Shown: piece after piece, positions 3 to 32,000 of the stretch | Layout of the letters: each line of letters begins with the position of its first letter | How positions within the stretch are numbered: the stretch's first letter is position 1 | Assembly: GCF_025273655.1 (NCBI RefSeq) | Contig: NZ_CP045921.1 | Location: forward strand, 750,001-782,000 | DNA length: 32,000 nucleotides | Origin: Candidatus Saccharimonadota bacterium | GTDB lineage: Bacteria; Patescibacteriota; Saccharimonadia; Saccharimonadales; Saccharimonadaceae | Reading direction: 5' to 3' | Notes under the pieces: generated by a model | Told to the model about the DNA's origin: nothing | The model's input: the letters and a program-made list of their open reading frames with translations, nothing else | The model's database searches: none | Made by a program: the position numbers and the translations under genes

Positions 3-1508
3 ATGCAGCATGTGATTGATTACGCTATCGACCCGAAAAACGATATTGACGTTATCCTTGTCAAATCCATCGACCGTTTCACCCGCGCTGGTGCGATGGT
101 GTACGAGCAGCTCAAAAAACAGCTCGAACCCCGTGGTGTCCATCTTGAAGACATGTACGGCGTGATTAGTAATGCAAAGATCAACACGCTAGAGCATCTC
201 GGTATGGAGTATAAGTGGAGCGTTACCACACCGTCACGTAAAACAGAGTTACTTGAGGCAGAACGTGCCAAAGACGAGGTACGCGATATTCTAACGCGCA
301 TGATTGGCTCGGAAATCCGCTACACACAGATCGGCTACTGGTCACGTGCAGCGCTATACGGATATGAAACGAGCAAGCTTGAAACCGTGAACGGTAAACG
401 AGCTATTCTTGTGCCGCAAACCGACCAAGCGCCTATTATTCGTAAGATGTACGATATGCGAGCCTCTGGCATCTACAGTGACGACCAAATAGCCGATGAA
501 ATGAACCGGCTTGGTTTTCAAACTCCAATCAAGGTAATTCGCGACAAGCTAGACCGGACTAAGATTGTGAGGCGTTCTGGCGGCAAGAAAATGACCGGCA
601 AGCTGCTGCGCGTCTATGTTGCAAAGACTATTTATGCAGGCGTGAATACTGAAAAGTGGACTGGCGATAAGCCGGTGCTATGTAAGTTTGATGGTTTAGT
701 GTCTATCGAGTTATGGAATAAAGCCAATCGCGGCAAAATCAGTATTGCACTCAATCCTGATGATCCAGACCACCCAACCGTTACCCGTGCGCCTAAGCAA
801 GAGAAATTTGCAAAGAAGAACGTATATAACGAGGAGTTCCCATATCGCAAAGTGGTGCTCTGTCCTGAATGTAGCAATCCGTTGCTTGGGAGCGCTTCTC
901 GTGGCAAGTCGGGCAAATACTACCCTGCATATCACTGTAGTCACCACGGTCACTATTTCCGCGTTCCTAAAGGCGAGTTCGATGACAAGATAAATCAATT
1001 CATTGAGCGCGTTATCGTCGATCCTGCGCGTTTTGACGAGGTTCTAAAGGCCGTACAGACCGTGTGGGAGCAACGCCAAGTGCGTGTGCAGGACGAGGGT
1101 GAACTACGCGATAAGAAGCGCGAGGAGCTTGAGGCTCAGATGCGCGTTATTGTAGACAAAATGAGGCTTGTGTCATCACCGACGGCAATTAAATACATGG
1201 AGGAGGACTTAACTAAAATAGAGCAGCAAATTAACGATTTAGATGCTCGTAAAGGCGAGCTAGAAACGCAAGGAGGCGTCGATATGCCAACAATCTTGAA
1301 ATATATAGAATACTTTGTGGAACACCTCAAAGAATTGCTCATCGACCACTGTAACCCGATACTTCGAGCACGTTATTTTGGGGTATTATTCGACAAAATG
1401 CCAAGCTATGCAGAAATAGATTGTGGAACACCAGAAAATGAAAAAGTTCCAGAGGTCAACGAGCTTTTCAAGCTTGTATTGTCTGGAACGTCTTCATTGG
1501 TGCGGTGA
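3..1508 (+). CDS. Large serine recombinase, 5'-truncated by the window edge
   Basis: The frame is open from the window edge. It shows the resolvase-domain tail (VILVKSIDRFTRAG), a recombinase domain, a Zn-ribbon (CPECSNPLLG...YHCSHHGH) and a C-terminal coiled-coil. The catalytic Ser region should lie upstream of the window. The TGA stop at 1506-1508 lies inside the tRNA-Leu 3' end. Confidence 0.85.
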   Translation: MQHVIDYAIDPKNDIDVILVKSIDRFTRAGAMVYEQLKKQLEPRGVHLEDMYGVISNAKINTLEHLGMEYKWSVTTPSRKTELLEAERAKDEVRDILTRMIGSEIRYTQIGYWSRAALYGYETSKLETVNGKRAILVPQTDQAPIIRKMYDMRASGIYSDDQIADEMNRLGFQTPIKVIRDKLDRTKIVRRSGGKKMTGKLLRVYVAKTIYAGVNTEKWTGDKPVLCKFDGLVSIELWNKANRGKISIALNPDDPDHPTVTRAPKQEKFAKKNVYNEEFPYRKVVLCPECSNPLLGSASRGKSGKYYPAYHCSHHGHYFRVPKGEFDDKINQFIERVIVDPARFDEVLKAVQTVWEQRQVRVQDEGELRDKKREELEAQMRVIVDKMRLVSSPTAIKYMEEDLTKIEQQINDLDARKGELETQGGVDMPTILKYIEYFVEHLKELLIDHCNPILRARYFGVLFDKMPSYAEIDCGTPENEKVPEVNELFKLVLSGTSSLVR

Positions 1509-1585
1509 AGAGGACTTGAACCTCCACGAGCGCAATGCTCACTAGCCCCTCAAGCTAGCGCGTCTACCAATTCCGCCACCACCGC
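1498..1585 (-). tRNA. tRNA-Leu (anticodon GAG), type II with long variable arm, CCA encoded
   Basis: I folded the reverse complement GCGGTGGTGGCGGAATTGGTAGACGCGCTAGCTTGAGGGGCTAGTGAGCATTGCGCTCGTGGAGGTTCAAGTCCTCTTCACCGCACCA by hand. It gives a 7-bp acceptor stem, a 3-bp D stem, anticodon stem CTAGC/GCTAG with loop TTGAGGG (GAG, G37), variable arm GAGC-ATTGC-GCTC, and a T arm GGAGG-TTCAAGT-CCTCT. Confidence 0.9.
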
Positions 1586-4226: not shown

Positions 4227-5438
4227 TAACTCTGTCTCGAGTTTGGCACTCAGATTACGGTGACCTTTGGCCGTGACGAGTATATCGTCTTCTATCCGCA
4301 CACCTATGCCTTCTTCGGGGATATAGATACCCGGCTCGACCGTGAGCACCATACCCTCTTGCAGGTATTTAGGACGACCTAGTGCATCGTGTACGTCAAC
4401 ACCCAGGCCATGGCTAATTGCATGCGGAAAATATTTTCGATAGGCGTCATCATCCATATCCCGCATAAGACCAAGGCCGAGAAGTGCACGCTTCATAATT
4501 ACATCTACTTGTCGGTGATACTCTTCGATACCAAGAAGCGGCTCGATGAGCGAGATGATCTGGGTCTGCGCACCTGCTACAGCTGCATGCACTTCCAGCT
4601 GCCGCTTAGTAGGCTTGCCGACAGCGTAGGTTCGGGTAATATCAGCAGCATATCCGTTCACGCGCGCGCCGATGTCAAGCAGCAGTAGTGTACCTTTTTT
4701 GAGCACAGCGCTATTTGTCCCATAGTGCAGTGTACACGCATTACCGCCACCCGCTACGATAGGATCGTACGCATGTCCTATCGCACCCCGAGAGCGGAAG
4801 TAGTGAGAGAAATCCGCCTCGACTTCATACTCGTGTTTGTATGAATCAAGTTTTGATTTCACTTCGCGGAATCCATCGATCGTCAAATTGATTGCCGCCT
4901 GCATAGCAGCAATTTCTTCTGGATGCTTAATCGCACGAAGCTCGGCAAGTTTGGGCCGAAAATCCTGCACCTGTGTAAATATACGCTGGCACTGTTCCCG
5001 CAAGTCATGCGCAGCGGGGTTGAGCGTGAAACCAAAATGCTCATGATACTGGGGTTGGTCAACAACGTAGATAAACTGCCGAGTGCGCGCTTCGCGGCGG
5101 AGAAGCTCGAGCGCTTCGTTTCTATCGATTACATCAGCAACACCACTGATGTCGCGCGCATGCTGAGCAGACAAACTCCCGTCGAACAGTGCATGAACCT
5201 CGTCGACTTCTGGTGATACAAGCCACGATTTACCCCGCGTCCCGTCCATAATCAACCACCAGTTTGCATGTTCAACACCCGTCAGGTACCAGAAATTTGC
5301 CTCTTGCTCGAAACTATGCGCCGCATCATTGCCTCGCTGCATTTCACTATACGCCGACACTATCAATAAACTGCCTTCGAGCTTCTGCATGGCAGCCTGG
5401 CGATTTGTTTCGAAAAATGTCGCGTCCAGCTTTTTCAT
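4224..5438 (-). CDS. pepP: Xaa-Pro aminopeptidase (peptidase M24B)
   Basis: The M24 metal-ligand motifs are present: LDIGARVNGYAADITRT, HGLGVDVHD, VEPGIY and IEDD. An SD (gagggaag) lies upstream. Confidence 0.85.
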   Translation of the reverse strand: MKKLDATFFETNRQAAMQKLEGSLLIVSAYSEMQRGNDAAHSFEQEANFWYLTGVEHANWWLIMDGTRGKSWLVSPEVDEVHALFDGSLSAQHARDISGVADVIDRNEALELLRREARTRQFIYVVDQPQYHEHFGFTLNPAAHDLREQCQRIFTQVQDFRPKLAELRAIKHPEEIAAMQAAINLTIDGFREVKSKLDSYKHEYEVEADFSHYFRSRGAIGHAYDPIVAGGGNACTLHYGTNSAVLKKGTLLLLDIGARVNGYAADITRTYAVGKPTKRQLEVHAAVAGAQTQIISLIEPLLGIEEYHRQVDVIMKRALLGLGLMRDMDDDAYRKYFPHAISHGLGVDVHDALGRPKYLQEGMVLTVEPGIYIPEEGIGVRIEDDILVTAKGHRNLSAKLETEL

Positions 5439-18449: not shown

Positions 18450-18599
18450 CGCCCTTTTCTGCTTGCAGGCTTAAAAACACTATGACATAATAAAATTCAC
18501 TATGATTCCACTGGAATCCTCTACTCACACATGTTCGGATGAGTCGAACCGCTAGTGACATATCACTTTTTCATTTACAATTAACTACGGGAGGTTCGC

Positions 18600-20381
18600 T
18601 TGAAACTTTTTAGCAGAACAAACAGCAGCACAACTAAAAAAACGATTAATATATACAAGGAAGAGCTCAAAGAAGATAAAAAGCAATTCATCATTGCGAC
18701 AATTCTTGTGCCCATGCAGCATCTGCTCTACGTTGTACTGCTCCCATTGATCATCAGCTTCTTCACACAGTCGCTAATCACCAGCTCGCATAATTTCACT
18801 ACACCACTGCTTCTCATAGGTTTTATGGCACTTATATCACTCATGGCAATTATCGTAGGACACTTCGGCTACCTTGCTCTTTTCAAACATGAGGAAAGTA
18901 TGACCACAAAGCTCACTGAGCGCGCGCTCACTGGCCTACTTCGCCATAGCCACAGTTTCTTCGCAAACAACAAAGTCGGCGCGTTAGCCGGTGACGTCAA
19001 CACGTTCAGCCGTTCGTACATGTCAATATTTGACACTATTGCCCTACAAGCGACAAGTATTGTTGTCAACTATACCGCTAGCCTCATCATTGTCGCATTC
19101 ATCGCACCGATTATGTTGCCTGCGCTCATCTTGTTAACCGGCTTCATCATCTACGACGCGCTTCGTTCGTACAGTGCGCGTGCTGAGTATCGCACTGAGC
19201 GCAAAGAGCTTCAGTCAAAACTTTTTGGTAATTTCGCCGATATACTCGGAAATCAAACGCTTGTGCGCATGTTCGGCACAAGTCGCCAAGAGATAAAAAA
19301 CACTGTCGCACAACGCCGTCATATAGAATCAATTGCCAATCAAGAAATCGATATACTCCAGCGCGGTGCCGAGACTCGCATGGGTGTACTGTTTTCGTTT
19401 CAGATTCTGACACTTCTACTATGTCTAGTCCTGATCACACGTGATGCACTCTCTATTGCGGCGCTGATATTTATCATCACCTATCTCGGACGCGTTACGG
19501 GCTCACTTTTTGCTATTAATGGCATTATAAGAGGGCTCGAACAGGCATTTCTCGACGCAGCGAAAGTTACGGAGATTCTCGACCAGCCGCCAGAAATAGT
19601 TGATCAACCACATGCCAAAAAACTTGAAGTGTCGCATGGCAATATCTCACTGAACGATGTCTCATTCACCTACCAAGATGCCAAAGATAGACCCGTGTTC
19701 AAACGTGTACAGTTGGACATACCTGCTGGTCAAAGTGTCGGACTTGTCGGCAAGAGTGGTGGGGGTAAATCAACCCTCACGCACCTGCTTCTCAGATATA
19801 TGGATATCGGCTCTGGCGAGATATCCATAGATGGACATAATATCGCTACAGTCACGCAAGATAGTCTGCGCTCACACATCGCTTATGTCCCTCAAGATCC
19901 CTATCTGTTTCATCGTAGCCTTTCCGAAAACATCGCTTACGGCAAACCAGACGCCACCGAGCCAGAGATTCGTGCAGCAGCAGAGAAGGCTCACGCAGTC
20001 GAGTTCATCGATAATTTACCGCAAGGACTTGATACAATCGTAGGCGAGCGTGGCGTCAAACTAAGTGGCGGGCAGCGGCAGCGCATCGCTATTGCTCGCG
20101 CAATACTCAAAGACGCGCCAATCCTCGTACTCGACGAAGCAACATCTGCGCTAGACTCGGAGAGCGAAAAGCTCATCCAGGAATCACTCGAAACGCTCAT
20201 GCGTGGTCGAACTAGCATAGTGATCGCTCATCGACTCTCCACCATCGCCAAACTCGATCGCATCATCGTGCTTGAACAAGGCAAAATTATCGAAGATGGA
20301 ACACATACTGAACTCCTGAATAAGAGGGGTATCTATGCCAAGCTCTGGAAACACCAAAGCGGCGGCTTTATCGAAGAGTAA
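18600..20381 (+). CDS. ABC transporter permease/ATP-binding protein (type I exporter, MsbA-like half transporter)
   Basis: It has six N-terminal TM helices, Walker A (GKSGGGKST), the signature LSGGQRQR, and Walker B (ILVLDEATSALD). It has a TTG start with GGGAGG 5 nt upstream. Confidence 0.9.
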   Translation: MKLFSRTNSSTTKKTINIYKEELKEDKKQFIIATILVPMQHLLYVVLLPLIISFFTQSLITSSHNFTTPLLLIGFMALISLMAIIVGHFGYLALFKHEESMTTKLTERALTGLLRHSHSFFANNKVGALAGDVNTFSRSYMSIFDTIALQATSIVVNYTASLIIVAFIAPIMLPALILLTGFIIYDALRSYSARAEYRTERKELQSKLFGNFADILGNQTLVRMFGTSRQEIKNTVAQRRHIESIANQEIDILQRGAETRMGVLFSFQILTLLLCLVLITRDALSIAALIFIITYLGRVTGSLFAINGIIRGLEQAFLDAAKVTEILDQPPEIVDQPHAKKLEVSHGNISLNDVSFTYQDAKDRPVFKRVQLDIPAGQSVGLVGKSGGGKSTLTHLLLRYMDIGSGEISIDGHNIATVTQDSLRSHIAYVPQDPYLFHRSLSENIAYGKPDATEPEIRAAAEKAHAVEFIDNLPQGLDTIVGERGVKLSGGQRQRIAIARAILKDAPILVLDEATSALDSESEKLIQESLETLMRGRTSIVIAHRLSTIAKLDRIIVLEQGKIIEDGTHTELLNKRGIYAKLWKHQSGGFIEE

Positions 20382-24345: not shown

Positions 24346-27159
24346 CTAAAGTAACGTCTTGAGATATTTGCCAGTAAACGAAGCTGCGACTTTTGTGAGC
24401 TCTTCTGGTGTACCAGTTGCCACCACAGTACCGCCACCGCTACCACCTTCGGGGCCCATATCGATCAGATGATCGGCTGTCTTGATGACGTCGAGATTGT
24501 GCTCGATGATGACCATGCTATTACCGCCCTCAACAAGTTTCTGGAGTATGCCAAGTAGGCGCTTGACGTCCGCCGAGTGCAGACCTGTCGTCGGTTCGTC
24601 CAGAATGTAGAGTGTCTTGCCAGTACTACGACGAGACAGCTCAGTCGCGAGTTTGATACGCTGCGCTTCGCCGCCGCTAAATGTCGTGGCAGGCTGGCCC
24701 AAGCGAATATAGCCGAGGCCCACATCCACCAATGTCTCGAGCTTGCGTTGCACAGCTGGTACATTTTCGAAGAACTCTGCTGCCGTCTCTACTGTCATCT
24801 CTAGGACGTCGCTGATAGTTTTGCCTTTGTATTTGATCTCGAGCGCCTCTTGGTTGTAGCGTTTGCCCTTACACACATCACATGTCACATATACGTCTGG
24901 CAGGAAGTGCATCTCGATCTTGATCATACCGTCGCCCTGACAGTTTTCACAGCGGCCGCCTTTGACATTGAAGCTGAAGCGCCCTGCTTTGTACCCACGA
25001 ATATTTGCCTCTGGTGTACTGGCGAAGAGCTCGCGAATCGGCGTAAAGATACCCGTGTAGGTAGCAGGATTGGAGCGGGGAGTGCGTCCGATAGCCGACT
25101 GGTCGATGATAATGACCTTATCAAGCTGGCCGATACCTTCGATATCATCGTGTGCTCCAGGTACAGTCTGGGCACGATGTAGGCGAGCAGAAAGCTCTTT
25201 AGCCAAGATGTCATTCACCAGCGTCGATTTGCCACTGCCGCTCACGCCGCTTACTACCGTCATCAGGCCAAGCGGGAACTCGACATCAACGTTTTTGAGG
25301 TTATTTTCGCGGGCACCACGAATGATAAGCTTGCGATCTTTCTCCACTGTGCGACGCTTCTTTGGCACCTCTATTTTGTCAGTTCCACTCAGGTAGCGAC
25401 CAGTGATACTGTCTGGATTTTTGGCAACTTCGGCCGGTGTACCCGCAGCCACCACTTCTCCACCCTTCACCCCTGCCCCAGGGCCGATATCAAGCAGGTA
25501 GTCGGCTTCGCGAATAGTGTCTTCGTCGTGCTCGACCACTAGCACCGTATTGCCGAGATCGCGTAGGCGTTTAAGTGTAGCAATCAGACGGTCATTGTCG
25601 CGCTGATGCAAGCCGATAGATGGTTCGTCAAGCACATATAGTACTCCTTGCAGGCCAGAACCAATCTGCGTCGCCAAGCGGATACGTTGTGCCTCTCCGC
25701 CACTGAGTGTATTAGCGGCACGACCAAGCTCTAGATAATTCAGCCCTACGTTGCTCATAAATGTCAGGCGAGATACGATTTCTTTCATAATAGCGCGAGC
25801 GATGAACTGCTCCTGCTCTGTGAGTTCAAAATGATTCCGGAACAAGTCCAACGCCTCATCAATACCAAGTCCGCAAATATCCATGATATTGTAGCCATGC
25901 ACTGTCACTGCCAACACCACAGGTTTGAGACGCTTGCCACCGCAGGCGTGACATTTTTTCTCACGCATGAAACGCTCGATATCTTTGCGCATAAACTCGC
26001 TATCGGTCTCTTTGTGACGGCGCTCCAAATTCGGAATTACGCCTTCATACGTGGAGTCATAATAGCGACCGGTACCGAGTTTAACCCTATATTTCTGATT
26101 ACCCGTACCATAGAGAACTTTCTGGATCGCCTCTTCGGATAATTCTTTCACCGGCACCTGTAGATTAAACCTATGCGCACTTGCCACTTCGGCCAGCTTC
26201 TTGAGCCACCATGCATCTTGATTCACACGGTTATACGGGCGGATTGCACCTTCGGCAATTGTCAGATTTGGGTTGAACACTAGCTCCGGATCAACTTCGA
26301 GCCGAGTACCTAGGCCAGTACAGACTGGGCATGCGCCTTGTGGTGTGTTGTAGCTAAACAGGCGCGGCTCGAGCTCTGGTATCTCGATATCGGGGTTGTC
26401 TAGCGAAGCGTAACGCTGACTGAGCATGTGCACTTCGTCCGTATCGGCATAGTAAATACCAATGATTCCCCCACCTACGTCGAGTGCTTGCTCGATACTT
26501 TGCGCCACTCGCGTACGCATGTCGGCAGCCATAACCAGGCGATCCACTACTATTTCGATGGTATGGCGATCGTTCTTCTTGAGCGTAGGGAATTCGTCGA
26601 GCGCATATACTACACCGTCGACACGCGCACGTGCGAATCCGGCGCGAGTGTACTGTTCGGGTACGTGAGCAAATTCGCCTTTTTTGTCTTTGGCGATAGG
26701 CGCTAGTAACATCAGTCGCGTGCCTTCGGCAATCTGCATCACTTCGTCGATAATGTCGTCCTTCGTCCGGCGCGTGACTTCACGTCCGGTAATAGGATCA
26801 TGGGGCACACCGATGCGGGCATAGAGCAAGCGCAGGTAATCGTAGATTTCTGTGACAGTCGCCACAGTACTGCGCGGATTGCGGCTGGTCGATTTCTGGT
26901 CGATCGAGATTGCCGGACTCAGGCCATCGATACTTTCCACGTCCGGTTTGTCCATGATACCGAGGAATTGGCGTGCGTAGCTACTGAGACTCTCCACGTA
27001 ACGACGCTGGCCTTCAGCATAGATAGTGTCAAACGCCAAGCTGGACTTGCCCGATCCGCTAAGACCCGTAATCACCACTAATTTATCGCGCGGTATCTCT
27101 ACCGACACATCTTTGAGATTGTGCTCTTTGGCACCTGTAACCCGTATCACCTCTGGCAT
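24346..27159 (-). CDS. uvrA: Excinuclease ABC subunit A
   Basis: The 937-aa product has two ABC ATPase modules ([18 protein letters not shown], 2x LSGGEAQR) and Zn-finger Cys clusters. Confidence 0.95.
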
Positions 27160-27168
27160 ATCTGTACT

Positions 27169-27174
27169 AGTATA
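27169..27174 (-). promoter_or_regulatory. -10 box TATACT, 9 nt upstream of the uvrA ATG
   Basis: The minus strand reads tggTATACTagtacagatATG, with no SD. Confidence 0.45.
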
Positions 27175-27256
27175 CCACTTTATCTTACATCAAATCCAGG
27201 GGCATACACTTTGAAACTTTTACGGCACACTGCATTAAGCTTATGATTGCATGTTT

Positions 27257-27284
27257 TTGACCGTACTGCTACATTATGTATAAG
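27257..27284 (+). promoter_or_regulatory. Candidate sigma70-type promoter (TTGACC-16 nt-TATAAG) for the 98-aa membrane protein
   Basis: The sequence reads ttgacc gtactgctacattatg tataag. An SD (ggtggag) lies 6 nt before the ATG at 27309. Confidence 0.4.
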
Positions 27285-27308
27285 TAACTAAACATGGTGG
27301 AGTAATCT

Positions 27309-27605
27309 ATGAAACAGCGAGTCGTAGTACTGGGTATCGTCTTTTTGCTACTCTTTGCATTGGCCAAATCCGGTATCATCGATTCACTGTTTATCTTCCT
27401 GCTCGTCGGCGCCATACCGGGCACAACCTGGTCATTGCCAGCTAGTTTTATGCTCACAGTATCGTTTGTGGCCGTCACCCTTCTGGCGATCCGCTACACC
27501 ATCGTCGCAATCCTCGACGAGCGAGACCTGCGGCGCCGCACGCAGAAATACATCGCCCGGCGCGAGCGTATGCCAAAGAAGCGCTTTCGCTCTATTCCTC
27601 GCTAG
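27309..27605 (+). CDS. Hypothetical small membrane protein with a basic C-terminal tail
   Basis: The 98-aa product has 2-3 hydrophobic helices and then RDLRRRTQKYIARRERMPKKRFRS. An SD is present. Its 3' end overlaps sbcB by 14 nt. Confidence 0.5.
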   Translation: MKQRVVVLGIVFLLLFALAKSGIIDSLFIFLLVGAIPGTTWSLPASFMLTVSFVAVTLLAIRYTIVAILDERDLRRRTQKYIARRERMPKKRFRSIPR

Positions 27606-29025
27606 TATCCGGCTCGGCTGGCTCTGGCATGATCGATTCAAACCATAGTTTGAGCTCGGTGAGCACGAACTGCTGATGATCGGTCAACTCAGCAGCAGCG
27701 ACTTTCTGCATATCCTGCATGAACTGCGGCGCTTTTGCCTGCAGATGTGCGGCTCGCCACGTTTCGTAACTCGCCAACTCCTCCGGTGTCGACTGCCGCG
27801 GAAAATTACGAGCTTTGTAGCGAGGGAAGAGCGCGGACAGGCGCGCATCATCGAACTCTGGTTTGTAGAGTTTGAGATCTTTCATGTCCGTATTGCGCAG
27901 CACTTCACTACGGAGTTTGTCACGGTCGCTTATGAAGCCATCGTACAGTTGCCCCTCTGCATCAGATATCGGTGGCCAGTCGGGCTTCTTCATAAGTACG
28001 TTCGCCACTCGCCCGGCGAATTCAGGATGCGAGAGGAGTAGTGCACGATGTTTTTCTATTGTCGCTTGGTTGAGTTGTAGCTTGGCCCAGCCGTCTTCTT
28101 GACTTAGCACGCCGAGGGGTGCCACTGCTGGCGCACGGTTGTATTGCAGCTTCTTTACAGGCAGCTTCCGATAGTCATCACCGCGATCGGCGTATGGAGT
28201 AAACAGAATATCGGCCAACTCTTTCTCGCTCTTACTGGTCCAATCCGTCGGATCGTAACGTAGATCATACACAAACACATTGCCATAATCTGCCGCGGCG
28301 AGTGGAAGCGCTACGGTCGTCTTATCGTGGTCGGCATCATAGCGACCCGAGCTGTAGACAAACGGCTGCTTGTCGTCGAGATTTACCAATTTCTGAATCT
28401 CTTTCTTGTTACGAAGTTTGAGAAGATACTGGAAAAGTTGCGGCTGCTGCGCGGCGATCAGTTTCGTCACGCCGATCAGTGCTACCACATCGCTTAGTGC
28501 ATCGTGCGCTTTCTCATGCGCTAGCCCGTTTTCTGCGCTCAGAAGCTCGAGCTTATTAACAGCTTTGCCGTCAACTGTCGGCCATTTGATACCATCTGGT
28601 CGCAGTGCCCGCGTCATGCGCACCACGTCGAGCATATCCCAGCGCGAACGACCGTCTTTCCAGGTCCATTCGTACGGATCGTAATAATTTCGCCACAAAA
28701 ACGCACGCATAAACTCATCGTCGAAACGGATACTGTTGTAACCCAGCATGATAGTGTCCGGCGTAGCGATCTCCTCCATGAAGATCTTGGCAAACTGTGC
28801 CTCGGTATAGCCGTCTGCCACCGTTTCCTGTGGCGTCACACCTGTCACCATGAGTGCATACGGACTTGGCAGTGTATCGTCGTTTAGCGCTACCAGCAGA
28901 TTGTACGACTCGCCTATTGGGTTGAAATTCATGTCAGTGCGCTGCCCGGCGAACTGCATGATCCGGTCTTCGCGCGGGTTGAGGCCGGTCGTCTCGAGGT
29001 CGTAAAAGAAGAAAGTTTGTGCCAT
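27592..29025 (-). CDS. sbcB: Exodeoxyribonuclease I
   Basis: It has a DEDDh exonuclease N-terminus (FFFYDLETTGLNPREDRIMQFAG, ...HDALSDV) and ExoI SH3-like/C-terminal regions. At 477 aa the length is typical. Confidence 0.85.
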   Translation of the reverse strand: MAQTFFFYDLETTGLNPREDRIMQFAGQRTDMNFNPIGESYNLLVALNDDTLPSPYALMVTGVTPQETVADGYTEAQFAKIFMEEIATPDTIMLGYNSIRFDDEFMRAFLWRNYYDPYEWTWKDGRSRWDMLDVVRMTRALRPDGIKWPTVDGKAVNKLELLSAENGLAHEKAHDALSDVVALIGVTKLIAAQQPQLFQYLLKLRNKKEIQKLVNLDDKQPFVYSSGRYDADHDKTTVALPLAAADYGNVFVYDLRYDPTDWTSKSEKELADILFTPYADRGDDYRKLPVKKLQYNRAPAVAPLGVLSQEDGWAKLQLNQATIEKHRALLLSHPEFAGRVANVLMKKPDWPPISDAEGQLYDGFISDRDKLRSEVLRNTDMKDLKLYKPEFDDARLSALFPRYKARNFPRQSTPEELASYETWRAAHLQAKAPQFMQDMQKVAAAELTDHQQFVLTELKLWFESIMPEPAEPDTSEE

Positions 29026-29034
29026 CTATGTACT

Positions 29035-29040
29035 ACTATA
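29035..29040 (-). promoter_or_regulatory. -10 box TATAGT, 9 nt upstream of the sbcB ATG
   Basis: The minus strand reads gtgTATAGTagtacatagATG. Confidence 0.4.
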
Positions 29041-29097
29041 CACGATCCCTCTGTCATTCTTGCTTCGATCCAGAGTAACAGATGGAGACTTTTGCCC

Positions 29098-29129
29098 AAA
29101 AAAGCGAAGAGTCCTGCTAGGCAGGACTC
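29098..29129 (-). terminator. Rho-independent terminator closing the GC-rich unit
   Basis: The minus strand reads gagtcctgc-cta-gcaggactc followed by ttcgctttttt. It lies just upstream of the sbcB promoter. Confidence 0.6.
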
Positions 29130-29295
29130 GTATGTGCGGATGGTTTAGATACATCGGTCGTGGCCCGCAGGAGGCGCAGCTAAATCAATCGATATACATC
29201 GAGATTACTGCAGCACTCACTGCGGACCGCACGTGTTCCGGAATCAACCTGCTCGCAATGCAGGGAGCCGTAGAACACAAAATACAAAGTTGGGT

Positions 29296-29348
29296 GGCCA
29301 CCCAGGACGATGAGACGATCGATTGTCTCCGGCGCGTCCTGGGTGGCC
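29296..29348. repeat. 14-bp perfect inverted repeat (ggccacccaggacg / cgtcctgggtggcc), 25-nt spacer with a nested 5-bp stem
   Basis: The arms are 29296-29309 and 29335-29348. The spacer contains gagac-gatcgatt-gtctc. The left arm is part of the palindrome tgggtggccaccca. Confidence 0.8.
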
Positions 29349-29563
29349 CGGTGTTCCCTACGATGGCAAAGCTGATGCTCTACCTGGGCGGCGACCGGAT
29401 AGCCACTTGTACTCCTTCCGAAAAAATCATTCGACAGAGTTCCTGGCGGACGTCAGGAAATCGACAGGTGTCCGCTGTAGCATGAACCACCGGGGCTCAT
29501 CGCGGATGCGGTGCATCCAAATCTCCTTTCAGTAAACTTCGGGCACGCGGCACCGGCTGATGG

Positions 29564-29731
29564 TCAGGACTTGGAACTGATTCCGACGTCGGGGACGCCG
29601 CCGATCGCGGTGCCGGACAGGTAGCCGCTGGTGAGAACGCCGGAGGTGACGAGGGGCTCGAAGCCGGTCTGGTTGACCTTGGCGATTTCGGGACTCTTCT
29701 TCAGGGAGATGGTGGAACCGGAGGGGGCCAT
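29564..29731 (-). CDS. Candidate 55-aa Gly/Ser/Thr-rich small protein, no family recognised
   Basis: The product is MAPSGSTISLKKSPEIAKVNQTGFEPLVTSGVLTSGYLSGTAIGGVPDVGISSKS. An SD (aggag) lies 5 nt upstream of the ATG. 48 of 54 internal codons end in G/C. Confidence 0.45.
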   Translation of the reverse strand: MAPSGSTISLKKSPEIAKVNQTGFEPLVTSGVLTSGYLSGTAIGGVPDVGISSKS

Positions 29732-29778
29732 GATGGCTCCTGTTCTGCGCCGAAGCACATTGTTGGGTACCAGACTGG

Positions 29779-29832
29779 ATTGTGTCGGGCTTCACACTCA
29801 CCCACTTAGATGACCACAAAGCCCGACACAAT
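29779..29832. repeat. 14-bp perfect inverted repeat (attgtgtcgggctt / aagcccgacacaat), 26-nt spacer, in the sORF leader
   Basis: The arms are 29779-29792 and 29819-29832. A TAGAAT hexamer (minus strand) overlaps the promoter-proximal arm by 2 nt. Confidence 0.8.
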
Positions 29833-29914
29833 TCTACAAACTTGTATGAAGTATCTAAATTGTCAACGTACATGTACCAAAGGAAGTATGCACCTCAACT
29901 TTAGCATTGTATAC

Positions 29915-29943
29915 ATATTAGCATATTTTGTATTTTTTGTCAA
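29915..29943 (-). promoter_or_regulatory. Near-consensus sigma70 promoter: TTGACA - 17 nt (ending TGc) - TAATAT
   Basis: The minus strand reads ttgaca aaaaatacaaaatatgc taatat. It starts 10 nt after the obg stop and fires toward the GC-rich unit. Confidence 0.55.
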
Positions 29944-29952
29944 TTATATTTC

Positions 29953-31269
<1,317 letters not shown>

Positions 31270-31332: not shown

Positions 31333-32000
31333 CTAGTGAATAAAGTTGTAGTTACTAGCTTGGCTCATAGGAATAGTACGACTCGAGACAACATTGAAGC
31401 CTGCGTAATTCATCTCACTGATCGTAAATGAATCTCCATTGATTGTTTCTACAATTGCAACGTGTCCGTAACCAGCATAGCCACCACCATTTTGCAGGAT
31501 TGCGCCCGGTGCAGGTGTCTTGTTCACAGTGAAGCCTGCCGCCTGTGCATTGATAGCCCAGGTCGAAGCGTTACCCCAGAAGCTACCGATAGGGCGACCC
31601 AGTTGAGCACGGCGCTCATATGCGTACCATGTACAGTTACCAAATGCATAACGGTTGCCGACAGATGCAGACGCGTTTGCAAGTCCCGCCGTGCTACTGA
31701 ATGAGCCTGTACTTTGGCCATTCGACATTTGTGTAGAAGCGGCCGCTGGAGTCGACGCAGGGTCGGCTGGCTTTTGGCCGCCAGGCACGATGAGTTGCAT
31801 ATTGCCATGAATTCCATTTACCTCGAGATCATTGAAGCTAACAATACGCTCAGGCTGCGTCTTCATCTGATCGGCAATCGATTGAACCGAATCTCCGTCT
31901 TTCGTAGTATAGAGCACGCCATCGACCGGCAAGATGACAACATCTCTTCCGGCTTCAACCGCGTCCGACTGAAGGTTATTTGCCCATTTAACAGTCTGCG
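31333..32000 (-). CDS. LysM-like + CHAP (NlpC/P60 superfamily) peptidoglycan hydrolase, 5'-truncated by the window edge
   Basis: It has a CHAP domain (FGNCTWYAYERR...GYGHVAIVE) preceded by LysM-like segments (YTTKDGDSVQSIADQM...). The reading frame stays open upstream of the track's TTG to position 32000. Confidence 0.8.
   Translation of the reverse strand, partial: QTVKWANNLQSDAVEAGRDVVILPVDGVLYTTKDGDSVQSIADQMKTQPERIVSFNDLEVNGIHGNMQLIVPGGQKPADPASTPAAASTQMSNGQSTGSFSSTAGLANASASVGNRYAFGNCTWYAYERRAQLGRPIGSFWGNASTWAINAQAAGFTVNKTPAPGAILQNGGGYAGYGHVAIVETINGDSFTISEMNYAGFNVVSSRTIPMSQASNYNFIH

Follow-up and report, generated by a model that had tools for sequence, protein, structure and literature searches.

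The obg-exoI interval

A stretch of 32,000 nucleotides (nt) of Saccharibacteria DNA, contig NZ_CP045921.1 from position 750,001 to 782,000, was analyzed over its full length and is referred to here as the window. Of concern is a short open reading frame (ORF) situated between the genes obg and exoI, on the minus strand at 29731..29564. It has 55 codons and encodes the amino acid (aa) sequence MAPSGSTISLKKSPEIAKVNQTGFEPLVTSGVLTSGYLSGTAIGGVPDVGISSKS, which is 100% identical to the hypothetical protein GII36_04330 (QHN43056.1 / WP_260762840.1) of Candidatus Mycosynbacter amalyticus. This organism is a cultured member of the Saccharibacteria that lives on Gordonia amarae and, according to PMC11880426, an obligate parasite of Gordonia. 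A Shine-Dalgarno (SD) sequence, AGGAG, is found at 29741..29737 on the same strand and is separated from the ATG by the 5-nt spacer CCATC. Thus the position and sequence of the ORF and of its AGGAG are as described in an earlier note on this DNA. The neighboring genes encode Obg, ExoI, a LysM/CHAP protein and UvrA.

ExoI-centered loci from 80 Saccharibacteria species, designated here by L numbers, were compared with the window. The gap between obg and exoI is 35-50 nt in most of these loci, compared with 930 nt in the window. In L002 and L005, the nearest relatives at the species level, the gap measures 87 and 35 nt, and the ORF is entirely missing. Inserts of a sequence different from that of the window occupy the same place in L003 and L004. 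The three inserts nevertheless open alike, with a promoter of the form TTGACA-17-TAATAT, a leader of ~135 nt and a long hairpin, and they close with similar terminators situated just 5′ of the native exoI -10 box. The interior of the window insertion is G+C-rich throughout. The 930-nt insertion is a self-contained unit, here termed the cassette, that consists of a promoter, a leader, a slot formed by an SD and an ORF, a set of mini-ORFs, a 3′ module and terminators. A Pfam search of the 32-kb window showed no recombinase and no enzyme of the type that modifies ribosomally synthesized and post-translationally modified peptides (RiPPs).

Other inserts are found at the same site. The group of L017, L019 and L024 has a gene of ~300 aa, with gaps of ~975 nt, and among L011, L012/L016/L063 and L112 there are a 274-aa gene, segments of ~4.1 kb and a gene of 323 aa that resembles hexapeptide-repeat genes. 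Since these insertions are unrelated, the obg-exoI site is a general insertion hotspot. L004 has a second, tandem cassette module (4461-4957) with its own promoter, a diverged leader (E = 0.03 with the leader model R1 described below) and a 47-aa ORF. The tandem module is absent from L093, a close relative of L004. The low-coverage contigs L115 and L116, which show extra differences and frameshifts, were not trusted as alleles, and contig L117 covers only 153 nt upstream of exoI.

The window and L102 (ENA ERZ28620716 scaffold_2) are ~99.3% identical over 25200..30000, or ~4.8 kb. The tract includes the cassette, exoI, a 98-aa ORF and most of uvrA, and its flanks, obg and the LysM/CHAP gene above 30000 and the end of uvrA below 25200, are ~80-85% identical. 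It looks like a recent import by homologous recombination, with a left breakpoint at the 3′ end of obg. The notion that the cassette is far more conserved than its flanks in this pair was considered and is wrong, as the high identity is general to the tract and spans exoI and most of uvrA. The 98-aa ORF (27309..27605, plus strand) is hydrophobic, converges on exoI and overlaps its 3′ end; it is called in every relative examined and belongs to no Pfam family.

Codon usage and properties of the encoded peptide

The G+C content of the 55-codon ORF at codon positions 1, 2 and 3 is 0.52, 0.56 and 0.89. C alone accounts for 0.72 of third positions. In the 22 resident genes of the window, G+C at third positions (GC3) ranges from 0.42 to 0.60 and C at third positions (C3) from 0.16 to 0.36. 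A direct count agrees with that in the earlier note: 48 of 54 internal codons end in G or C, compared with 28 of the first 54 in obg. In a sliding 54-codon scan of all 32 kb, the per-phase G+C has a median of 0.61 and a 99th percentile of 0.76, and the region of the 55-codon ORF is the sole place where any phase reaches at least 0.80. The phase signal is thus well in excess of chance. It extends from the ATG to the stop codon. However, a shadow frame on the plus strand (29631..29813) uses the same third positions, so that G+C periodicity alone cannot separate the two frames.

The bias is conspicuous in individual codon families. TCC, the rarest Ser codon in window genes (5% of Ser codons), makes up 7 of the 10 Ser codons of the ORF. 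All four Pro codons are CCC and all five Thr codons are ACC, as against 13% and 19%, respectively, in window genes. The mRNA is C-rich and G-poor (C 0.40, G 0.24), a composition for which Rho utilization was considered as a possible reading. High expression was considered as a cause of the preference for C-ending codons and is unsupported: the window includes a single ribosomal-protein gene, that for L25 (22822..23535), and its codon usage is ordinary, with GC3 0.52 and C3 0.27. Resting on one gene, this is a weak argument against an expression-level cause.

The translated aa sequence has the character given in the earlier note. It contains no Cys, and its maximal Kyte-Doolittle value over 19 residues (KD19) is 0.98, which implies that there is no transmembrane helix. 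Charged residues are concentrated in the N-terminal half (5 in the first 27 residues, 2 in the last 28), and Gly, Ser and Thr in the C-terminal half (8 of 27 residues compared with 15 of 28). The peptide is predicted to be disordered. An AlphaFold2 model from the single sequence has a predicted local distance difference test score of 59.5 and no secondary structure, and is uninformative beyond this hint of disorder.

Searches for homologs

Searches with the peptide covered ~15 billion proteins together with metagenomes, phages and plasmids and returned the self match only, although it should be noted that for a 55-aa query and databases of this size only relatives of more than ~50-60% identity would pass, and that antisense frames were not searched. 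An index of 5.8 billion protein clusters gave only the self match, both with the single sequence and with a three-member family profile. Exhaustive HMMER comparison with 1.84 billion representatives gave no homolog, nor did JGI metagenome contigs and IMG/VR, phage collections (blastn and tblastn) or plasmid collections. No family of Pfam, NCBIfam or PHROGs matches the peptide. Had the ORF been imported recently from a sequenced actinomycete, these searches should have revealed it.

The leader motif, the covarying helix, the exchangeable GC3-rich slot and the conserved mini-ORFs described below have no description in Rfam 15 or in the literature searched. The cassette is thus a previously undescribed element of Saccharibacteria, and its peptide has so far been annotated as hypothetical only.

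The ORF slot in related cassettes

In the related cassettes the slot follows the second leader hairpin and is opened by an SD, but its contents vary between lineages. L107, whose ExoI is 86% identical to that of the window, has a 73-aa homolog of the window peptide. L102 has the 55-aa peptide with the single change K54E. The slot ORF of L108 has 52 aa and is related through a common ..YRY..YG.. motif to the 47-aa ORF of the second module of L004. A Ser/Gly-rich ORF of 54 aa is present in the first module of L004, a basic ORF of 47 aa in L093, an ORF of 35 aa in L056 and one of 40 aa in L076. The 23-aa ORF of L003 is the only clearly hydrophobic one (KD19 2.0). No long ORF is found in the slots of L077, L034, L009 and L029. 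No family hidden Markov model matches the slot ORFs, and the one hit, of L004 to a YxzE-like bacteriocin, is non-significant (E = 0.15).

Important is the comparison between L004 and L093. Their flanks are 93-94% identical on both sides, but the slot sequences are unrelated. Homology ends at the start codon and restarts 9 nt 5′ of the stop codon. In the window this junction, TCCTGACCATCAGCCGG, is at 29553..29569 (minus strand), and conservation likewise restarts a few nt 5′ of the stop. Similar junctions are present in L107, L056, L076, L003 and L061.

Slot ORFs of at least 22 codons have a GC3 of 0.71-0.95 and are mostly C-rich, in genomes of 0.45-0.53 G+C, and each is found 5-9 nt 3′ of an SD-like motif. 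High GC3 is shared by unrelated slot ORFs in about 9-10 other Saccharibacteria cassettes. Thus the codon usage is a property of the slot and not of one gene.

The L107 homolog was compared directly with the window ORF. It has an SD (AAAGGA in place of AGGAG), a GTG start and the same TCC-TGA stop junction, and it keeps the frame over indels of 39 and 15 nt, while 1-2-nt indels accumulate in the adjacent non-coding stretch. Frame preservation in a homolog, proposed as a check in the earlier note, is therefore observed. The GC3 of the L107 ORF is 0.93; since this homolog is diverged (26 of 54 aligned residues identical), the bias is maintained rather than decaying. The L102 allele is not an independent witness because it sits in the recombination tract described above.

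The shadow frame, which the earlier note had named as the possible conserved frame, is largely refuted as such. It has a stop codon in the window and no SD, and although it is open for 101 codons in L107, it ranks last in conservation among the six frames (40% identity, BLOSUM sum 72).

Promoter and leader RNA

The promoter of the window cassette (29915..29943, minus strand) has a -35 box TTGACA at 29943..29938, a spacer of 17 nt and a TG-extended -10 box TAATAT at 29920..29915, and scores 10/12 in a consensus scan. A TTGACA-17-TAtAAT promoter is situated directly 5′ of the leader in every related cassette. The consensus scan found no sigma-70-like promoter on the plus strand in 28900..30100, but it cannot exclude one.

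The leader contains a conserved RNA motif at 29776..29908 (minus strand; 139.7 bits with covariance model R1, which was built from 7 leaders). Alignments of 7-8 leaders (A1, A3 and A4), modeled with RNAalifold, give two hairpins around a conserved single-stranded box. Hairpin 1 is at 29905..29876 and the long hairpin 2, of ~24 bp, at 29831..29780. The single-stranded stretch between them, 29867..29851, consists of a TTGACA box followed by TTTAGATAC. The window leader folds with a z-score of -3.6, and in the alignments compensatory, double-sided changes are present at 12 of 34 pairs. R1 has one match in the whole window. It has full-length matches on the same strand upstream of exoI in 15 loci, among them distant Saccharibacteria with an ExoI of ~60% identity (L077, L056, L034, L076, L061, L009 and L029).

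A search of Rfam 15 with 28900..30050, at E ≤ 10 and with gathering thresholds included, showed no family beyond chance matches of microRNA and snoRNA type. L102, L107, L108 and L109 gave nothing in Rfam 15 at E ≤ 0.1.

A predicted covarying helix between leader and 3′ end

The leader box TTTAGATAC (29851..29859, minus strand) is a perfect complement of the sequence GTATCTAAA at 29152..29144, termed box′, which lies ~15 nt upstream of the final terminator hairpin. Perfect complements of the leader box, of 8-16 nt and located 66-126 nt 5′ of exoI, are found in nearly all cassettes. The sequences differ between lineages: the two partners are TCTAGATA and TATCTAGA in L107, TGAAGATA and TATCTTCA in L109, ACAAGTTGGATA and TATCCAACTTGT in L061, and L029 has two partners of 16 nt each. 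Complements of 12-16 nt never or almost never arise in 1000 shuffles (P ≤ 0.001); those of 8-9 nt are individually marginal.

Offsets 9-13 after a TTGAYA anchor are Watson-Crick paired in 13 of 13 cassettes. The pair at offset 10 is A-T in 7 cassettes and G-C in 6, and that at offset 11 is G-C in 10, A-T in 2 and T-A in 1. At its edges the helix contains G.U pairs, which extend it in L004 and L093. As the register was picked by maximal complementarity, these pairing counts are inflated; where the two partners lie is constant and does not depend on the register chosen. When the transcript of 809 nt is folded, the helix is present in both the minimum free energy and the centroid structure (z = -6.3, 20 shuffles). 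From these data we infer that box and box′ pair in the RNA and that the transcript folds back on itself.

Mini-ORFs, hairpins and the 3′ module

Downstream of the 55-codon ORF, on the same strand, a second strong SD, GAAAGGAG, at 29530..29523 is followed by an ATG ORF of 29 aa at 29516..29427 (together 29427..29530). A hairpin at 29518..29504, GGATGCaccGCATCC, holds the start of this ORF. In L107 the ORF stops after 8 codons (MHRIRDEP-stop) and yet the nt sequence is ~90% conserved, which points to a constraint at the RNA level. A third strong SD, GGAAGGAG, precedes an 8-codon mini-ORF with a GTG start, MAIRSPPR-stop (29406..29380; with the SD 29380..29419). This mini-ORF is kept in L107 (2586-2612) with one synonymous change, GCT to GCC.

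Mini-ORFs of 5-10 codons with strong SDs are present in the related cassettes as well. Several have Pro before the stop codon or an RSPP motif: MAIRSPPR-stop, MSRSPP-stop, MNRSPP-stop, MQMHRYRP-stop, MVQPRGP-stop and MHRIRDEP-stop. Those of the related cassettes are located at 4577-4597 and 4714-4734 in L009 (MSRSPP-stop and MNRSPP-stop), 4766-4792 in L076 and 4649-4672 in L034. Pro-stop and RSPP contexts are known for slow termination or stalling. Many of the SDs of these mini-ORFs are GAAAGGAUG, which also resembles a CsrA-type site.

A different group, of 7-8 codons, ends in Gly-Phe-Thr-stop and is found in L108 (1882-1908), L056 (4570-4596), L109 (2522-2548), L029 (1765-1791, and a second copy) and L061 (4558-4581). 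In six copies the last four codons differ at third positions only (GGY TTY ACY TAR). This type of variation argues for translation and suggests that these mini-ORFs are translated, possibly into a regulatory nascent peptide.

A long GC-rich hairpin with arms at 29348..29335 and 29309..29296, followed by the U-rich tail ACUUUGUAUUUUGUGUUC (29273..29348 in all, minus strand), is a candidate internal terminator or processing site. The hairpin is kept in L107 with an A-U to G.U change, and the tail is kept in L108. Further downstream is a conserved 3′ module at 29096..29290 (minus strand). It is 91% identical to 2156-2352 of L108, although the ExoI proteins of the two are only 85% identical, and it is common to L107, L004 and L093. 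The module comprises a stem, CCGCAG...CUGCGG (29225..29208 and 29173..29162), that encloses a variable hairpin, then box′, and then the final terminator hairpin with its T-run, identified at 29129..29109 by a terminator scan. The 3′ module could be an independent small RNA.

A plus-strand ORF of 117 aa overlaps this region (29132..29485). Automatic callers report it in Logan and ENA contigs, whereas NCBI does not annotate it, and neither Pfam nor NCBIfam has a matching family. It differs from L102 at four sites, every one a synonymous third-position change. As a gene it was rejected, for in L107 and L108 it is split over 2-3 frames, the alignment has indels that are not multiples of three, and it has no SD. 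Judging from these alignments it is probably spurious, and overlaps conserved RNA.

Interpretation of the 55-codon ORF

With moderate confidence, the 55-codon ORF is viewed as genuine, probably translated, variable cargo of a self-contained unit of ~0.85 kb between obg and exoI, and not as a stand-alone gene. Comparison of the window with L107 leads to our reading that the frame and the translation signals are maintained, while the aa sequence appears to be without detectable constraint. Thus the claim in the earlier note that this is a genuine coding sequence stands as regards frame, start, stop and GC3, all of which are kept in L107. It does not stand as regards substitutions, which the earlier note had proposed to check for codon periodicity.

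Several observations weigh against the proposed view and should be considered together. The differences between window and L107 are 21, 15 and 16 at codon positions 1, 2 and 3, and so are not codon-periodic. The proportions of nonsynonymous and synonymous differences (pN and pS) are 0.34 and 0.28, a ratio of ~1.2, and the corresponding ratio of rates (dN/dS) is about 1, from one informative pair. The frame of the ORF is not the best conserved of the six. The calculated isoelectric point is 8.1 for the window peptide and 4.4 for the acidic L107 homolog. Stop-free frames are common in C-rich sequence, so that the integrity of the ORF alone is weak evidence, and two indels in multiples of three have a chance of ~11% without selection. 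Four cassettes (L077, L034, L009 and L029) do without a long ORF. No evidence from expression or proteomics came to light; the gene is unmentioned in the Mycosynbacter literature examined and has no match in the supplementary data searched. The extreme C3 bias is not accounted for by the proposed view. In addition, the internal hairpin and U-rich tail (29348..29273) might terminate transcription before box′, in which case box and box′ would be on different RNAs.

The unit is read as follows. What the sequence shows is a near-consensus sigma-70 promoter that drives the cassette and an RNA that starts with the ~135-nt leader, in which hairpin 1, the single-stranded box and hairpin 2 follow one another. 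An SD then opens the ORF slot, after which come the mini-ORFs, the large hairpin, the 3′ module and the intrinsic terminator. Pairing of box with box′ would close the transcript on itself as a 5′-3′ fold-back. In mRNAs of the hok or aapA type, a fold-back of this kind stabilizes the RNA and gates its translation. The slot content would be swapped by homologous recombination through the conserved flanks, as relatives with 93-94% identical flanks hold unrelated ORFs and some lineages hold none. The peptide itself would evolve without detectable purifying selection, with retention of the frame, the translation signals and the C-ending bias. The best guess is a strain-specific, fast-diversifying peptide, serving for example in antagonism, addiction or host interaction, that is made from an mRNA under fold-back control. 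A close alternative is that translating the slot matters to the RNA, and not the peptide itself.

Alternative explanations

An unlikely explanation, which nonetheless merits consideration, is that the ORF is untranslated, or its translation irrelevant, and that it is an accident of C-rich sequence within a structured non-coding RNA of ~800 nt. The z-score of the transcript (-6.3) and the conserved closing helix are in keeping with this, as are the lack of codon periodicity in the substitutions, the dN/dS of about 1, the several open frames, the four cassettes without a long ORF, and ORF flanks that are conserved at the nt and not at the codon level. However, a period-3 G+C signal (0.5/0.55/0.9) that remains in phase across the 39- and 15-nt indels and recurs in ~9 unrelated slot ORFs is not explained in this way. 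Neither is the SD-like motif 5-9 nt before each slot ORF, nor the fact that the segment that varies between L004 and L093 is precisely an ORF body, from start to stop. A further proposal, which we regard as improbable, is that of a gene recently transferred from a high-GC organism (Gordonia amarae or another actinomycete, a phage or a plasmid), with the codon usage being that of the donor. The GC3 of 0.89 as against 0.42-0.60 in the 22 resident genes, the use of codons rare in this genome, the G+C-rich interior of the insertion, its absence from the closest relatives L002 and L005, and the parasitic life on Gordonia that is reported in PMC11880426 all agree with a transfer. But the bias is confined to the interval from ATG to stop, within a platform native to Saccharibacteria; the same bias recurs in many Saccharibacteria whose slot holds an unrelated ORF, so that it is not a one-off island; and the diverged L107 homolog still has a GC3 of 0.93. 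No homolog came to light in protein, metagenome, viral, phage or plasmid searches, and the origin from a high-GC genome or host that the earlier note had proposed thus finds no support. Taken as a whole, what holds of the interpretation in that note is that the ORF behaves as coding; its foreign origin is unsupported, and the cassette context had been missed.

The fold-back raises the question of a type I toxin-antitoxin-like module, that is, a toxin ORF on an mRNA kept inert by the fold-back, with an antisense or small RNA as antitoxin. The covarying 5′-3′ pairing, the long structured 5′ untranslated region with its strong promoter, the hydrophobic 23-aa slot ORF of L003 (KD19 2.0), the patchy, insertion-like distribution and the tandem duplication in L004 resemble such modules. 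Yet the explanation is quite improbable for the window, where the peptide is hydrophilic (KD19 0.98) and predicted to be disordered. Its L107 homolog is acidic, no plus-strand promoter was found in the scan of 28900..30100, and Pfam, NCBIfam and PHROGs gave nothing (a PADLOC search was not made). A role of the boxes at the DNA level, in which they would be the inverted repeats either of a small mobile element or of a phase-variable segment able to invert, is very improbable. It is true that perfect inverted repeats of 8-16 bp, lineage-specific yet complementary, flank the ORF segment in every cassette, and that the locus is an insertion hotspot. However, all 15 cassettes have one orientation in the assembled contigs, and no reversed SD with a GC3-rich ORF was found when sought in them. 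The variable segment ends elsewhere than the repeats, and the promoter and hairpin 1 are outside the left repeat but within the conserved unit. The G.U pairs that extend the helix in L004 and L093 and its recovery by thermodynamic folding speak for RNA, and Pfam shows no recombinase in the window. A true gene on the plus strand, either the 117-aa ORF or the shadow frame, is largely refuted and is the remotest of these explanations. Gene callers do predict the former, and its four L102 differences are all synonymous; the latter is open for 101 codons in L107. But the 117-aa ORF is broken into 2-3 frames in L107 and L108, the shadow frame contains a stop codon in the window and is the most poorly conserved of all six (40% identity, BLOSUM sum 72), and neither has an SD. 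Tests for a RiPP precursor were negative as well: no genes for modification, processing or export are found nearby, and there is no precursor family in Pfam, NCBIfam or PHROGs.

Thus the view of the ORF as variable cargo of the cassette is retained. A bolder extension of it, which is improbable as it stands, is a new class of Saccharibacteria element, in which a strongly expressed, fold-back-closed RNA platform would carry exchangeable, hypervariable peptides with selected C-ending codons like those of the actinobacterial host, and these peptides would have a role in an arms race of the parasite with its host or with other parasites. At its most extreme, this reading would have the RNA or the peptide act inside the high-GC host.

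Relation to known systems

The cassette most resembles the fold-back-controlled RNAs of the hok and aapA type or the dual-function RNAs, though it fails the peptide criterion of type I toxins. With hok/sok of plasmid R1 and aapA1/IsoA1 of Helicobacter pylori it shares a small ORF on a structured mRNA, a covarying pairing that spans the distance from the 5′ leader to the 3′ end (in the cassette a computed prediction), a patchy insertion-like distribution, tandem copies and small coupled reading frames. It differs from them in that the window peptide is hydrophilic and disordered by prediction and not a membrane toxin, and in that an antisense promoter was not found in the window scan. Furthermore, its ORF is swapped or absent on a conserved platform, and its mini-ORFs are downstream and not overlapping. 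Dual-function RNAs such as RNAIII/hld of Staphylococcus aureus, SgrS/SgrT and SR1/SR1P are likewise structured RNAs with their own promoter and terminator that encode a short peptide. However, the cassette ORF is hypervariable and has an aberrant codon bias, and the RNA is absent from Rfam and is not known to have base-pairing targets.

Unrelated short ORFs between conserved flanks are also found in agrD, in the comX and comC pherotypes and in bacteriocin cassettes, and as in these loci the slot peptides have 20-75 aa and no signal peptide. Unlike these loci, the cassette has no adjacent processing, export or receptor genes, its neighbors being obg and exoI.

Two motifs of TM7 bacteria in Rfam, lysM-TM7 (RF03005) and MDR-NUDIX (RF02918), are similarly lineage-restricted and promoter-proximal, and are found in or near this neighborhood, but the cassette leader matches neither at gathering or E-value thresholds. 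The MDR-NUDIX RNA is present in the window at 18499..18558 (plus strand, 66.4 bits), directly 5′ of an ABC-transporter gene (18600..20381). In 10 relatives (L002-L011, L061, L073, L076; e.g., 2231-2383 of L002) the lysM-TM7 RNA is found 5′ of the LysM/CHAP gene, which itself lies upstream of obg. The equivalent site of the window would fall past base 32000, as the CHAP gene (31333..31932) extends in the direction of the edge. A single tRNA gene, for tRNA-Leu(GAG), is present in the window, at 1498..1585 (minus strand).

Significance for Saccharibacteria

An extreme GC3 is usually taken as a sign of foreign origin, and the present case calls for caution, as here it is systematic at one locus across many genomes. 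Should the peptide prove unimportant, the locus would still be useful for its new RNA motif, consisting of the leader and the covarying helix, for its conserved mini-ORFs that are probably translated, and as a recombination hotspot. Candidatus Mycosynbacter amalyticus, which kills Gordonia, is one of very few cultured parasites from within the Candidate Phyla Radiation (CPR)/Patescibacteria. For such an organism, a strongly promoted and structurally elaborate cassette with strain-specific peptides and a maintained, non-native codon bias is a testable candidate for interaction with hosts or competitors at the level of the strain.

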